UHGV virus genome: UHGV-0132371
DNA from: a virus
Strand: one strand, 5' to 3'
DNA length: 45,879 bases
Below the pieces are notes generated by a model, which had not been told where the DNA came from, ran no database searches, and saw only the letters and a list, made by a program, of their open reading frames with translations. Positions 4,263 to 10,354 of this stretch are shown piece after piece; the stretch's first letter is position 1; each line of letters opens with the position of its first letter. A program made the position numbers and the translations under genes.

Positions 4263-4370
4263 GGTTTTCTCCATATTGGCGCGCTGCACCGCGCCATTAA
4301 ATTAATGAATTGCTGAATTTAGCGTGCAGCAACCCAACCCATGCTTATGGGGGTAATTGTTGCCTGGTGT

Positions 4371-5288
4371 TTATCGCTTGGCTTCGCCGCCGAGAGAGGT
4401 TGTTAATCCGTTAATGAGAGAGATAAGCTCGCCGGTCATCAGAACAAAGTCAGCGTCGAACCGCTGAGCCGCATCCTCACGGTCGATATCGTCGTTTTGT
4501 TCTGTAATCTCATTAGAGAACTTAAGGCGTTTGATGCTGCCGTCATCGCAAAGAACGAACTGAATGCGCTGTTGCCAGTCGATAGACAGCTTTGTAACTA
4601 CTTTGCCAGCTTCCAGATGCACATGAATTTCGTCACTGACCAGAGTCTGTTTTTTAAAGCGTCCAATACCGCCATCTTCAAGAATAGCTTTCAGTTCGGC
4701 TTCATCACCCAGGCCAAAGCCAGCAGGCGCACTACCGGAACGAACCCATTCGGTCATAGTTAGTTCGATCGGCGTTTCCATAGTCAGCGGTACCACCGGG
4801 AGAGAACCGAGAGTTTTACGAAGCAGGGCCAGTGAGTCTTCGGCACGTTTAGCGCTGGCTGCATCAACCATGATCAGACCGTCGGTGACGTTGATCCACA
4901 AACTAACAGTCGAGTTTTTGGAGAACGCCCGAGGAAGCAGGGAGTGCAACACTTCATCACGCAGCGAATCTTTCTCAGTTTTTTTGAGGCGACGCCCCTG
5001 ATCGGATTCCAGACGCGACACACGCTTGCGCAGTTCTTCAGCAATGACAGGAGATGGCAGTATTTTTTCTTCCCGGCGAATAACCAACAACACTTGATTA
5101 TTGACAGTGTGATGCAAGCGATCTGACAGCTGACCAAGTGGTGATACCCAACCGGTTTTTGCCATATCCTGGCTACCGCATGGAGTGAAGCGAAATAGTT
5201 CAAGCTGCTGTTCCAGCTCTTCCTGGTTGATGGTGAAATCGCGACTAATGCGATACACCAACATATTTTTGAAAAACGGATTGTTCAT
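4371..5288 (-). CDS. rdgC: Recombination-associated protein RdgC homolog
   Basis: 305 aa, alignable by eye along its whole length with E. coli RdgC ([11 protein letters not shown]..., [37 protein letters not shown]). Confidence 0.85.
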
Positions 5289-5340
5289 TCTCGGTTCCTC
5301 AACGCCTCTGCACCGGCGCTAAAAAGTTAGTTTCTCCATA

Positions 5341-5452
5341 CACAACAGAGAAGGGCACCTGCATTGGTCGGCGGCTTGCAGAGACCGCTTTCTTTTTGCC
5401 CGGGTGGATTGGGTTATGAGCCCGTCGCCCGGTGATGCCCTTTTCTGTTGTG
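5341..5452 (-). other. Long imperfect hairpin (16 of 18 bp stem, about 76 nt enclosed) in the leader between the first early-left gene and rdgC
   Basis: CACAACAGAGAAGGGCAC at 5341-5358 pairs with ATGCCCTTTTCTGTTGTG at 5435-5452; GC-rich interior with further self-complementarity. Confidence 0.4.
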
Positions 5453-5600
5453 CCCTGAAAAAGGCTGGCGGTTACCGGAAATACACGGGAAAACACCGGG
5501 CCGCCAGAACAGGGAGTTACTTGTTATTGCTTTAGCCTGCTTTTAACCACATCAGGCGCGGTGGTATCTTGGTGTTCTCACACAACCAAGAGGGATGTTT

Positions 5601-5798
5601 ATGGGCGCTTTTGATAACCAGGAAATTACGTTACCCGCATGCCCTAAGTGCGGCACTAAGACGAAGAAGAAAATCGCTTGGCTCAAGTCGAACAAAAGTT
5701 TCACTTGTCGATGTGGAGCTACTATCAATGTCAACAGCAGCCAGCTTACTTCCGAAATCAGGATGGTTGAGGACAAGCTGAAGAAGCTCTTTAAATAG
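5601..5798 (+). CDS. Small zinc-ribbon protein (CPKCG...CRCG), antisense to the early-left gene
   Basis: AGAGGGA RBS, possible TGnTATCTT promoter upstream, hairpin plus T-run downstream; but it overlaps the minus-strand ORF 5631..5996, so it may be a shadow frame. Confidence 0.35.
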   Translation: MGAFDNQEITLPACPKCGTKTKKKIAWLKSNKSFTCRCGATINVNSSQLTSEIRMVEDKLKKLFK

Positions 5799-6459: not shown

Positions 6460-6481
6460 AAACCCGACGCGGTGGTCGGGT
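6456..6481 (-). terminator. Rho-independent terminator ending the cI-cargo operon
   Basis: CCCGAC-CACCGC-GTCGGG hairpin followed by a U-tract on the minus strand, immediately after the stop at 6481. Confidence 0.55.
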
Positions 6482-6672
6482 TAGAACAGGAGTTTAACTG
6501 CGGCTAGGGTCAGACCTGTGATTGTAAAGATCGCACCAACTATCGACCAAGTCTGAATCCTGAGTTCCTTTTGTAGGTCTTCTCGTGTCGCGTAATTAGA
6601 CTTGATAACAGCAACATCAGTCTTAATGGACGCGATATCTACCTCAAGCTGCCTAACTCTTGCTTCAAGCAT
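6481..6672 (-). CDS. Small coiled-coil protein with C-terminal transmembrane helix (XhlA-like architecture)
   Basis: Start chosen at MLEARV, which has GGAGGTGA 6 nt upstream (track ORF extends to 6795 and would overlap the upstream gene); hydrophobic C-terminus [22 protein letters not shown]. Confidence 0.5.
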
Positions 6673-6739
6673 ATCATCACCTCCGCCATCTCCGCCTCGT
6701 CGTGTTATTGCAGGTAGTTCACTATTAAATGGTACTACA

Positions 6740-7087
6740 TTATTTTGCGGCGTCGGCATTTTTTTCATCTTCCGTTTTTGCCGGGAATTTTTCATTTACC
6801 CAGTTAAGAACTGAAAACGCATTTATATGTGTTTCATTTCCACAATTGTTGCATATTAGTGAAAAGTAATACTGGTTAGCAGTATCGGAATAAATGCTTT
6901 TTTCAGTAAAAACATTTACATAACTACCAAGCGCCATAGTGCATGGCATTCCAACACTCGCACTGACTTGAGGCACCGTTAACCTGTCATGCCCACATAG
7001 CGTGCATTTTAGATATATATTCTTTTCTGAGAAGTAAGAGACTAACATGTCCATGTTGATCCTTTCGAACCCCTGTTCACTCGCCAT
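6740..7087 (-). CDS. Zinc-ribbon protein (CTLCG...CNNCG), gene directly downstream of cI
   Basis: 115 aa, GAGGA RBS, starts 16 nt after the cI stop, so probably co-transcribed with the repressor. Confidence 0.55.
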
Positions 7088-7103: not shown

Positions 7104-7838
7104 TTAAAGTCGATTATATTTAATTGACTCATGAATCAATGCCTTACCCATGACATAAAGCTGATCCTGATTCGCCTCATTGATGTACCACTTTTCATAT
7201 GCAGAGTTATCAGACAGAACAGCGAGCTTGTCACCTTGCATCTGTAGGCGCTTAACATGAAACGTCTTACCGTATACGAAAGAGTAAACACCGTCGGTCT
7301 GGAAGTGACGAACTGAGATGTCGACGAATAGTCGATCACCAGAAACGAGGGTTGGTGACATACTGTCGCCGTTAACAGTCATGACCTTCACATCTTCTGG
7401 ATCGCGATTTCCAAAAAGCACTCGGGCATGTTCAGTCGTGAACTCAATGGCGTACAAGACTTCAACATAGTCAGAAAGCATGTAGGTGCCAGGTCCAGCA
7501 CTGACAGATAAATCCAGAACTTCAACGCGATAAACATCCTGCTCTGGCTTATTAACCATGCGTTTCACTTCCCCTGTATCTGTTGGCTCACCAACACCGT
7601 ATTCCAGCCATTCGGCACGTACACCAAGTACTTTACTGAGAGCCACTATTTTCTGACTGTCCGGTATGGCCTGGGCGTTGAACCACTTCCAAACTCCAGG
7701 TGTAGTGATCTCCACCCCGGCTTTATTAAGCAGGTCTGCAAGGTTTTTGTTTCGTCCCCGACCAGTTAATCCAGCAAGTTGACAAACTTGCAGCAGCCTA
7801 GTCGTGAAACCTTCTTTCGTTTCGTCTCTCTTAACCAT
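7104..7838 (-). CDS. cI: CI-like prophage repressor (N-terminal HTH, C-terminal S24 LexA-type peptidase domain)
   Basis: VNGDSMSPTL serine motif and downstream HVKRL lysine; divergent from a Cro-like gene. Confidence 0.85.
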   Translation of the reverse strand: MVKRDETKEGFTTRLLQVCQLAGLTGRGRNKNLADLLNKAGVEITTPGVWKWFNAQAIPDSQKIVALSKVLGVRAEWLEYGVGEPTDTGEVKRMVNKPEQDVYRVEVLDLSVSAGPGTYMLSDYVEVLYAIEFTTEHARVLFGNRDPEDVKVMTVNGDSMSPTLVSGDRLFVDISVRHFQTDGVYSFVYGKTFHVKRLQMQGDKLAVLSDNSAYEKWYINEANQDQLYVMGKALIHESIKYNRL

Positions 7839-7921: not shown

Positions 7922-8170
7922 ATGAACGCTGTAGAAATTGCAGTAGAAGCTGTCGGTGGACAAACAGCAGCCGCAAAAATTTGTGGTTTATCCCCGGTAG
8001 CTGTTCACCGCTGGGTTAAAAACGCCTGTCTTCCTCGTACCGAATACACAAAAAAAACGGAATACGCGGAGTTACTTGCTTCTAAATCAGCAGGTCAGTT
8101 CACTGCTGACTGGTTGCTGGAAAATGCTAATCCTGATCGTCCAGGAAAGGTTAACGATCCATCAGCTTAA
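7922..8170 (+). CDS. cro: Cro-like / YdaS-type HTH regulator
   Basis: 82 aa, AGGAGAG RBS, first gene of the rightward operon; HTH signature GQTAAAKICGLSPVAVHRW. Confidence 0.7.
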   Translation: MNAVEIAVEAVGGQTAAAKICGLSPVAVHRWVKNACLPRTEYTKKTEYAELLASKSAGQFTADWLLENANPDRPGKVNDPSA

Positions 8171-8198: not shown

Positions 8199-8762
8199 GT
8201 GGATAAACAACACTGGAAAGTAGAGCGCCAACCTGCATGGCTGGTGGCTGCAATCAAAAGAACTATTGCCGAAATGCCAGGCGGTTATACAGAAGCTGCT
8301 GAATGGCTTGGCCTGTATCGCGCTGGAAAACTCTCAACGGATGCGCTCTACAACAGACTGCGTAACGAAGGAGATCAAATTTTCCCGCTTGAGTGGGCGA
8401 TGGTGCTTCAGGATGCAAGTGGTACTAAGTATGTCACCGATGCGATAGCCCGCCGTAGTGGTGGCGTCTTCGTTCCGCTGGTGGAGGTTGATGATCTTGA
8501 TAACGGCGATATCAACCAGCGCCTGATGGAGTCCATCGAATGGATTGGTAAACACTCGCAGTACCTGCGTAAGGCAACCGCTGACGGGGTTATTGATCCG
8601 GCAGAACGTGAGCAGATTGAAGAGAACAGCTATCAGGTGATGGCTAAGTGGCAGGAACATTTGACGCTGCTTTTCCGTGTGTTTTGTGCGCCGGAAAAAG
8701 GTGACGCCCGCGAGTGTGCAGCTCCGGGCGTCGTGGCAGACAAATCTTGTATGGAGAAGTAA
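8199..8762 (+). CDS. CII-like / YdaT-YmfL-like putative regulatory protein
   Basis: 187 aa directly after the cro-like gene; GTG start with AGGGGA RBS. Family from memory, uncertain. Confidence 0.45.
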   Translation: MDKQHWKVERQPAWLVAAIKRTIAEMPGGYTEAAEWLGLYRAGKLSTDALYNRLRNEGDQIFPLEWAMVLQDASGTKYVTDAIARRSGGVFVPLVEVDDLDNGDINQRLMESIEWIGKHSQYLRKATADGVIDPAEREQIEENSYQVMAKWQEHLTLLFRVFCAPEKGDARECAAPGVVADKSCMEK

Positions 8763-8934: not shown

Positions 8935-9108
8935 ATGCGCGAAGTTAACCGAAGGTTCAAAGACCACAGAGGGATCCCCGTTCGGGTTATCCGGTGGGAG
9001 CCTGAAACGCGGCGTGTTATCTACCTGCGAGCAGGGTATGAGCACGAATGCTTCAGCCCACTTGAGCATTTCAGGCAAAAGTTCAGGGAGATAGAGGATG
9101 AGAGCTAA
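8935..9108 (+). CDS. Small hypothetical protein (57 aa)
   Basis: AGGAAGG RBS before the ATG; the alternative frame starting at 8768 is also open but ends in low-complexity sequence. Confidence 0.3.
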   Translation: MREVNRRFKDHRGIPVRVIRWEPETRRVIYLRAGYEHECFSPLEHFRQKFREIEDES

Positions 9109-9136
9109 CCCAATGAAAAAAAACTTAACTGAGAAT

Positions 9137-9538
9137 TTATCCTGCCAGGGCATTAATCCTCAATTTGATAGCCTTTTCTTCAACTTTGAACCTCTTTTTC
9201 AGGTCTTCGAGTTCTTTGGCGAGAGCAATGTATTGATCCGCAACTCCATATTGAGCAATCAGTCCGGTTGCCAGTTTAGCATCGGCGTTTTCTGGATCAT
9301 CAACATCGATGATTTTTCCATATTTTCCGGTAATAACGGCAATACGGTGCTTGCACATCGTGCCCATTTCACCAGCAATGCAAGTGCATTCTATTTCGAG
9401 GTTACCGCTCTGATCGCTGATGGTTACATCGTAAAAACCATCACCGCTGCTGCTGTTAGCCAAAAGTTGGTAGATCACGTTGTATCTCCTTATTTTTTTG
9501 TAGCGGTTAACGCTCATCCCAACCTCATTATTGATCAT
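9137..9538 (-). CDS. SWIM-type zinc-finger protein, opposite strand within the rightward early region
   Basis: C-x-C-x7-C-x-H (ECTCIAGEMGTMCKH) SWIM signature; AT-rich. The start may instead be the internal Met at 9517, which has GAGG upstream. Confidence 0.5.
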   Translation of the reverse strand: MINNEVGMSVNRYKKIRRYNVIYQLLANSSSGDGFYDVTISDQSGNLEIECTCIAGEMGTMCKHRIAVITGKYGKIIDVDDPENADAKLATGLIAQYGVADQYIALAKELEDLKKRFKVEEKAIKLRINALAG

Positions 9539-9620
9539 GCTTTATTCCAGGTATACACTGTCTCGGCAGCGGCAAAATCCGTTGCCGGGATTGGCGTCCT
9601 GGAATTGATTAAAGAGCACA

Positions 9621-9642
9621 ACCGCGCTCTGGCGGTTTTTTT
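9621..9642 (+). terminator. Possible weak intrinsic terminator (tR1-like)
   Basis: Short ACCGC...GCGGT stem followed by TTTTTTT. Confidence 0.3.
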
Positions 9643-9807
9643 GTGCGAAATGCATTGCTACACCCTGATTATGGTGGGGCGTGCAGGGGCATCGAAAGAT
9701 GCGCCGGCTTCTTTAGTCACCGGTTACGCCAACCCTGCACGTCTCACCACCAATGAGATTGGCGTCTCTTGTGGTGAGTTGTTAAAACTGACTAAAGAGG
9801 CAGCCAT

Positions 9808-10354
9808 CATGGCTACGATCCCAACCCTCGTTCAACCTGAAATTTCCGTAATTAACGGTCAGGCCGTTACCTCCTCTCTGGCTATTGCCGACTTCTTCAC
9901 TAAGCGTCACGATGACGTACTGAAAAAAATCCGCGCTCTGGAGTGTTCGCTAGAATTCACTGCCCGCAATTTTGCGGTGAGTGAATACACCGACGCTACA
10001 GGCCGCAAACTTCCCTGCTATCAAATCACCCGCGATGGCTTCGCGTTCCTCGCTATGGGCTTCACTGGTAAGCGAGCAGCACAGTTCAAAGAGGCATACA
10101 TCACAGCCTTCAACAGGATGGAAAATGCGCTTCACGGGGCAAGTGATAATTTCTGCGCAGCGCACAATGCCCACGTTGTTTACCTCTACATGTCTGAAAT
10201 TCACCGCGTCTGGTTAGAACAACTTTATCCGATGTTGGTTTCTGTTCAGTCTCCGCTAGCTTCATCACTCTACGACTACATCAACGATGGTGTATTCGTT
10301 GCTGGGTTGGTGGACTCGGAACTGAACAAAAAGCACAAGGAGGTGCGAAAGTGA
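9808..10354 (+). CDS. Rha-family phage regulatory protein
   Basis: Start at the ATG with AAAGAGG RBS (track ORF artificially extends upstream to 9098); ING..VTSSL.IADFF.KRHDDVLKKI and YQITRDGF.FLAMGFTG.RAA.FK motifs. Confidence 0.6.

Follow-up and report, generated by a model that had tools for sequence, protein, structure and literature searches.

A counter-oriented SWIM zinc-finger gene in a lambdoid early operon and the stop-free frame opposite it

How does a phage tolerate a gene that runs against the essential operon in which it lies, and what might such a gene encode? The question is raised by a SWIM zinc-finger gene on the minus strand of the virus genome UHGV-0132371 (UHGV), whose whole stretch of 45,879 nucleotides is referred to here as the window. 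The initial annotation, made from the letters of the DNA, placed the gene between a CII-like gene and Rha, against the direction of early transcription, and took it for lysogen-expressed cargo. The position is confirmed, and the immediate neighbours are a DUF4222 gene on one side and isrK together with a C4-type RNA, ahead of Rha, on the other. The explanation that we consider the best, with a probability of roughly 0.55 for the whole of it, is that the gene constitutes a moron-like cassette encoding a LigA-related protein, on a strand that is kept transparent to the operon.

Coding evidence and the predicted protein

In the window, a minus-strand open reading frame (ORF) extends over 9137..9538 and would encode 133 amino acids if counted from its ATG, which is the length at which it had been described as an AT-rich ORF. 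The ORF is present and its composition is as described, with a GC content of 0.42-0.43 over the SWIM region versus 0.50-0.55 in the flanks and a GC skew that flips its sign there. The length needs revision, a protein of 113 amino acids from a GTG codon being likelier. The gene and its ribosome binding site are as follows:

9137..9478, minus strand: SWIM zinc-finger gene, 113 amino acids, with GTG start at 9478 and TAA stop at 9137-9139
9486-9491, minus strand: Shine-Dalgarno sequence AAGGAG, 7 nt 5' of GTG 9478

The start codon at this position is kept in all homologous loci (numbered with the prefix L; L001 is Escherichia coli RM8082 and L041 is E. coli GXU-23-25-310), as GTG, as TTG in two of them and as ATG in L033. 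A Shine-Dalgarno variant, AAGGAG, GAGGAG or AAGGAA, accompanies it throughout, and the sequence 5' of this conserved element differs by context. Of the eleven homologues found, seven have a length of 113-114 amino acids, and the alignment with phrog_13130 begins at residue 23 of the long, 133-residue form. The in-frame ATG 9538 of the window was rejected as the start because of the Shine-Dalgarno sequence, the homologue lengths and the absence of a counterpart in L003, L010 and L011. From the aligned loci, GTG 9478 is almost certainly the true start.

Among eight distinct homologous genes, 569, 463 and 1480 substitutions fall on SWIM codon positions 1, 2 and 3, respectively, and the identity of the SWIM protein (53-89%) exceeds that of the antisense translation (30-79%) in every pair. 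The third-position excess, together with 461 clusters in the wider family, argues that the ORF is more than a product of chance, and the substitution pattern indicates that it is a genuine gene under purifying selection. A homology search had been proposed as a check on the initial annotation; conservation was found, in eleven close homologues as well as in the 461 family clusters.

The SWIM domain (PF04434) occurs in MuDR transposases, bacterial SWI2/SNF2 ATPases and MEKK1. The protein of the window matches it at 25.9-26.3 bits against a gathering score of 19.6, and its sole three cysteines and sole histidine build C31-T-C33-x8-C42-K-H44 (numbering of the 113-residue form), so the canonical CxCxnCxH motif seen at the outset is indeed present, as CxCx8CxH. 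All four metal ligands are invariant in the close family; among 55 diverse family members C31, C42 and H44 are invariant, C33 is more than 90% conserved, and 47 of these 55 also match the Pfam domain. An AlphaFold model based on the 55-sequence alignment (predicted local distance difference test, pLDDT, 95.2; predicted template modelling score 0.79) has strands at residues 2-8, 15-23 and 26-31 and helices at 34-37 and 43-50, that is, a predicted zinc knuckle of the strand-strand-strand-helix type of PF04434, followed by a linker and a long C-terminal helix at residues 79-112. Its best fold match in BFVD is a 'SWIM zinc finger protein' (E 8e-4); no solved structure matched the model, a profile search against PDB sequences was likewise empty, and NCBIfam has no family for the protein. 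The product is a member of the SWIM-domain family, in an uncharacterised stand-alone subfamily, and according to the model it would be a stand-alone zinc-finger protein with an amphipathic C-terminal helix.

A mobile cassette and the frame opposite it

The gene is part of a discrete insertion, the approximate limits of which emerge from comparison with two E. coli prophages:

9098..9540 (approximate), about 435 bp: inserted cassette, absent from E. coli KE40 and present in RM8082

In the otherwise collinear prophage of KE40, DUF4222 directly abuts the isrK promoter region, and the prophage of RM8082 carries the cassette with a different left flank devoid of DUF4222. The flanking contexts of the cassette number at least six:

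DUF4222 / SWIM / isrK-C4-Rha: the window and L005-L008
YmfL / SWIM / isrK-C4-Rha: L001 and L009
DUF4222 / SWIM / Phg_2220_C replication gene: L003, L010, L011, L017 and L018
DEAD helicase / SWIM / primase: L012
DEAD helicase / SWIM / Rha: L015 and L016
Cro / SWIM: L019
CII / SWIM: L033

In every prophage context the SWIM gene runs against the early-right operon and in the direction of cI. The close homologues found (58-100% identity) all belong to enterobacterial lambdoid prophages or to IMG/VR contigs, and the gene is rare: it is carried by 2 of 5,426 complete E. coli genomes, a tblastn search with the protein against 50,697 phage records gave no match, and narrower queries on viral contigs added one locus from one query and none from the other. 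This distribution fits a moron-like cassette that would have spread among enterobacterial lambdoid prophages. Morons, a concept derived from HK97 and HK022, are autonomous units lying between phage genes and expressed from the prophage. The SWIM cassette shares with them a discrete extent, presence/absence polymorphism, deviant GC content and promoter-like and terminator-like flanks. It differs from them in that it lies antisense within a translated stretch of an essential operon and its expression is presumptive, and the apparent selection for an open, coupled frame on the opposite strand is outside the moron concept.

The opposite frame is the following:

9098..10354, plus strand: operon-sense 'bridge ORF', whose ATG 9098 overlaps the DUF4222 stop (9106-9108)

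It is codon-aligned exactly antisense to the SWIM gene and then continues in frame through isrK, orf45/C4 and Rha. The codons TTA, CTA and TCA, which would place stops in this frame, are absent from all nine distinct prophage SWIM genes, the products of which show 53-89% pairwise identity. In the same nine genes, 64-87% of AAR, GAR and CAR codons and 19-36% of four-fold codons end in A, the ratio of TTA to TTG is 0:1 to 0:4 per gene, and CTA accounts for none of the 3-10 CTN codons; the expected probability of finding no TTA, CTA or TCA is 0.0002-0.01 per gene. Between the deeper SWIM lineages, 33-58% of third positions differ, and the nine copies can therefore be regarded as largely independent trials. 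In contrast, the three codons occur 1-12 times in each of seven of seven distant family members that are not embedded in this way and about 3-8 times per 113 codons in neighbouring phage genes, and only 3.5-8.5% of 113-codon stretches of phage sequence lack them.

The open frame is also joined to its neighbours at both ends, several of the overlaps having the form ATGA or TTGA:

Window: ATG 9098 over the DUF4222 stop; downstream in frame via isrK and orf45/C4 into Rha
L012: ATGA shared with the helicase stop upstream; a further ATGA shared with the primase start downstream
L017/L018: ATG over the DUF4222 stop; TGA over the TTG of the replication gene, behind GGGAGG
L001 and GXU-23-25-310: ATGA shared with ymfL; downstream in the same frame as Rha
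L019: ATG over the cro stop; the frame ends past the SWIM start

The depletion of stop codons and the start/stop overlaps form the observed signature. The peptide that the frame specifies opposite the SWIM gene is poorly conserved and gave no match in Pfam or PHROG. Selection thus appears to act on the openness of the frame and not on the sequence of the antisense product, and the simplest reading is selection for the passage of ribosomes, presumably because about 400 untranslated nucleotides, or a broken coupling, would be polar ahead of essential replication genes. Selection would purge TTA, CTA and TCA codons and thereby render the cassette 'transparent' to the operon. The open frame begins at the upstream gene's stop codon and reaches the next gene either by ending on it or by running in the same frame, and ribosomes might translate across the cassette so that Rho polarity is avoided and translational coupling is kept. 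In the window, translating ribosomes could also take transcripts from PR past the isrK terminator (9620-9642). Two points weigh against this reading: the prophage lineages are not fully independent, which makes a joint probability approximate only, and the bridge ORF of the window would put a 237-amino-acid extension on Rha, an unusual arrangement for an ORF that is translated.

The same open frame invites two other explanations. The real gene might be the long plus ORF 9098..10354, an N-terminally extended Rha, of which the SWIM ORF would be a spurious shadow. An open plus frame with a coupled start speaks for this, and PGAP annotated exactly such a gene in GXU-23-25-310 (L041, 1231-2730), namely a 499-amino-acid 'Rha family transcriptional regulator' that spans the whole SWIM antisense, with no SWIM gene. 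In RM8082, PGAP annotated a SWIM gene and an overlapping Rha of 318 amino acids (4341-4721 and 4614-5570), an inconsistency over the same DNA that the open antisense frame explains. The substitutions, however, pile up on SWIM position 3, which is position 1 of the plus frame; identity is higher on the SWIM side; it is the SWIM frame that has the 461 clusters and a fold with a pLDDT of 95; and residues 1-123 of the plus ORF lack a family match. As the only gene, the long plus ORF is largely refuted by the substitution pattern, family and fold of the SWIM frame, and an extended Rha in place of the SWIM gene is scarcely credible. The antisense frame might alternatively encode a second functional protein alongside the first, that is, true dual coding, as might be suggested by its openness in nine of nine copies and by a conserved ATG inside the cassette with the peptide 'MRAN'. 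Nevertheless, antisense identity is always below SWIM identity, and the C-terminal continuation varies between a Rha fusion in some loci and the start of a primase or replication gene in others. Both frames are open, but the antisense product matches no family and its sequence is not what selection acts on, and true dual coding is very improbable.

Relatives beside DNA ligase genes

A profile search with the close family yielded 461 clusters (50%-identity representatives, E <= 1e-3); the best 150 of these are mostly 105-125 amino acids long, and most match profile positions of about 1-105, which corresponds to full length. Outside phages, family members adjoin ligA, the gene of the NAD-dependent DNA ligase, at eight distinct loci, with ligA directly 5' on the same strand (L020/L021, L022/L023/L034, L027/L028, L035, L037, L038, L039 and L040), and at a ninth, in a Kiritimatiellae genome (L013/L014), the SWIM gene is convergent with ligA. 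The spacing at the same-strand loci ranges from an 8-nt overlap to a gap of about 80 nt. The gene order is zipA-ligA-SWIM at L020/L021, and the upstream ORF at L027/L028 contains the ligase OB, zinc-binding (ZBD), HhH and BRCT domains. The ligases encoded there share only 33-50% identity with the two query ligases, which argues for diverse hosts. In two metagenomic proteins, P0043 (207 amino acids) and P0154 (246 amino acids), the whole SWIM-plus-helix module is fused to a C-terminal LigA-type BRCT domain. The family is tied to LigA and BRCT because gene neighbourhood and domain fusion both point there, and from these associations we infer an accessory role in nick sealing or replication, exerted by binding to DNA or to LigA.

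By extension, the SWIM protein of the phage would most likely bind DNA or LigA and modulate nick sealing or replication. Lambda-type phages are packaged by cos, and the host ligase is needed to seal the cos ends. In a cos-type phage, modulation of LigA could affect the phage's own DNA or incoming DNA, and a LigA-related role is coherent with the constant location of the cassette in the replication/regulation operon of a cos-type phage. The window copy and all its close homologues lie in prophage early operons, not beside ligA, and the window copy shares with the unnamed ligA-associated family the size of about 113 amino acids and the SWIM domain with a C-terminal helix, but not the adjacency. 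Several observations count against a LigA-related role. Identity between the ligA-linked members and the protein of the phage is only about 20-35%, so that function may have diverged, and such a role for the prophage copy would be an extrapolation across this distance. The contexts outside prophages include some without ligA, namely an integrative and conjugative element (L024-L026), a mobile island (L029/L030) and uninformative surroundings (L031/L032), and LigA of E. coli ordinarily functions without a partner of this kind.

A parallel is offered by the eukaryotic SWIM proteins of the Shu complex, Sws1/ZSWIM7 and Shu2, which are recombination accessory factors. They are likewise small, consist mainly of the SWIM domain and serve as DNA-repair adaptors, which parallels the association with ligA and BRCT; on the other hand, no sequence or structural match to them was obtained here, and their partners are Rad51 paralogues, in place of the presumed LigA.

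The literature searched held nothing relevant on SWIM proteins in a prophage, bacteriophage, defence or ligA setting, and the sole related mention concerns SWIM-associated SNF2 ATPases in mobile elements. To our knowledge, neither the linkage with ligA and BRCT nor a stop-free, coupled antisense frame has been described before, and neither was found in that literature. If the ligase link is functional, the family would represent an unrecognised, widespread accessory factor of the bacterial NAD-dependent ligase, given its 461 clusters, and the prophage copy would be a handle on phage manipulation of nick sealing or cos-end joining. If the cassette is indeed kept transparent, it would exemplify a previously undescribed way to tolerate a counter-oriented moron inside an essential phage operon, and the antisense-frame signature suggests that translation of an operon limits how and where counter-oriented cargo can insert. 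The finding stands above routine annotation, with a mechanism that is inferential. That both strands are selected, one for the SWIM protein and the other for an open coupled frame used by ribosomes, and that the protein may be a LigA (BRCT)-directed factor employed by the prophage on the ends of phage or host DNA, is a combined proposal to which we give somewhat less than even odds.

Expression signals and the surrounding early region

Two candidate signals flank the SWIM gene:

9527..9555, minus strand: promoter-like element, -35 TATACC (9550-9555), 17-nt spacer, -10 AATAAT (9527-9532)
9116..9164, minus strand: AU-rich terminator-like hairpin straddling the SWIM stop, arms 9155-9164 and 9128-9137, with a U8 tract (9116-9123) behind it

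The putative promoter was located by our own scoring and ends 48 nt 5' of GTG 9478. The motif TGATCAATAAT lies 48-54 nt 5' of the SWIM start in L001, L012, L015 and L033 as well, and in the other contexts this distance is occupied by another weak promoter-like pair. Near this element there is no convincing copy of the CI operator (TTAAC...GTTAA type, as at cI-cro), a half-site-like chance match being located at 9117-9132, 3' of the SWIM stop; a lambda-type CII box (TTGC-N6-TTGC), searched for by eye 5' of the gene, was not seen.

Expression of the SWIM gene in the lysogen is plausible from this arrangement. The cI-like orientation would permit expression while PR is repressed, and convergent transcription from PR would dampen it in lytic growth. 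The signals themselves argue for caution: the candidate -35 is weak, and a consensus sigma-70 scan reported no canonical promoter for the gene, so that the promoter is a presumptive one. The hairpin is AU-rich with a z-score that is not significant, and it is kept in L003, L012 and L015, with the U-tract only in DUF4222 contexts and not in helicase contexts. The proposal of lysogen-expressed cargo is thus sustained by a discrete cassette in at least six contexts, low GC content, the promoter-like element, the hairpin with U8 and the direction of cI, and falls short in that neither a canonical promoter nor more than a domain-level match to a defence family was found. The cassette is not simply passive cargo, the operon strand being kept open and translationally coupled.

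Over 9527-9557, the SWIM promoter-like elements overlap back to back with a divergent -10 TATACA and -35 TTGATC of isrK (inferred by eye), and a GATC Dam site is located within the shared TGATCAATAAT motif. RNA polymerase binding at the SWIM and isrK promoters could be mutually exclusive or methylation-sensitive.

Two further explanations assign the cassette a purpose other than that of a LigA-related protein on a transparent strand. As a lysogenic-conversion gene, it might serve anti-phage defence or superinfection exclusion independently of LigA; it could, for instance, sense or block the DNA or proteins of an incoming phage. Like morons, it is counter-oriented, AT-rich, patchy and rare, one distant family member has a ThsB_TIR gene nearby on a mobile island, and PADLOC gave a single weak match over the SWIM part, to the candidate PDC-S62 (E 2e-6). 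That match covers the domain only (residues 7-68 against positions 26-86 of a 566-position profile), whereas assignment to a PADLOC defence system calls for a near-full-length match with partner genes; no known defence family was matched beyond the SWIM-domain level, neither partner genes of PDC-S62 nor a partner effector gene accompany the cassette, and the family is mainly cellular and linked to ligA, all of which makes a defence function unlikely. Less probable still is a mainly regulatory cassette, in which leftward transcription would restrain the PR operon, through antisense or convergent action, and the protein would play a secondary part or control replication. Lambda oop, a leftward non-coding RNA of 77 nt between cII and O, provides the precedent: the SWIM unit has the same place and direction relative to cII-like and replication genes, its transcript would be antisense to PR mRNA, wholly so to the translated part, and its promoter-like element overlaps the inferred isrK promoter. 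Unlike oop, however, the unit encodes a conserved protein under purifying selection, so that the product matters, and it occurs at varied positions of the operon, including after cro and between helicase and primase, which disfavours a site-specific regulatory role.

The early region of the window has the classical lambdoid immunity/early layout, and in its structural genes the phage is lambda-like, with about 88% identity to mEp237, HK225 and N15. The neighbouring features are as follows:

7104..7838, minus strand: CI-like repressor
7922..8170, plus strand: Cro-like gene
8199..8762, plus strand: CII-like YmfL/CP76 gene
8935..9108, plus strand: DUF4222 gene (PF13973, E 1.3e-15), convergent with the SWIM gene
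9566..9642, plus strand: isrK small RNA gene (Rfam, 74.6 bits against a gathering score of 50)
9620-9637, plus strand: stem of the isrK intrinsic terminator, followed by a T-run
9667..9754, plus strand: C4-type antisense RNA (Rfam, 81.2 bits against a gathering score of 45)
9809..10354, plus strand: Rha-domain (antirepressor-like) gene, followed by replication-type genes

The P1-type C4 antisense RNA controls an antirepressor. In the window, the C4 loop at 9707-9719 (GCTTCTTTAGTCA) is 92% complementary to 9789-9801 (TGACTAAAGAGGC), which covers the Shine-Dalgarno sequence of the Rha ATG 9809. This complementarity corresponds to the classic C4-type antisense block of an antirepressor ribosome binding site, and ATG 9809 is supported as the Rha start because the C4 loop pairs with its Shine-Dalgarno sequence. 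The right neighbour as a whole, with isrK, a C4-like RNA over orf45 and a Rha/AnrP-like gene, matches the isrK-orf45-anrP locus of Salmonella Gifsy-1 (PMC4825925). The likeness is that of the neighbour and not of the SWIM gene, the cassette being present also in prophages devoid of isrK, C4 and Rha. A Pfam Phage_ASH match to residues 153-247 of the long plus ORF (about 9554-9838) coincides with isrK and C4, and the 'Ash domain' of annotated Rha proteins here may largely be a translation of conserved small RNA genes and orf45.

Directly 3' of the cI-like gene, in a rex-like position within 6481-7087, lie two minus-strand ORFs, 6740..7087 (115 amino acids, CxxC...CxxC motifs) and 6481..6795 (104 amino acids, hydrophobic C-terminus). 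Both are candidates for expression in the lysogen and, unlike the SWIM gene, are rich in TTA, CTA and TCA. In L019, a second counter-oriented ORF of 96 amino acids without a Pfam match (5470-5760, plus strand of that locus) immediately precedes the SWIM gene on its strand, and the two may form a two-gene leftward unit. The SWIM-carrying prophage of L018 contains an NA37 and RelA_SpoT pair (406-2483) near the Q antiterminator gene, which looks like further accessory cargo.

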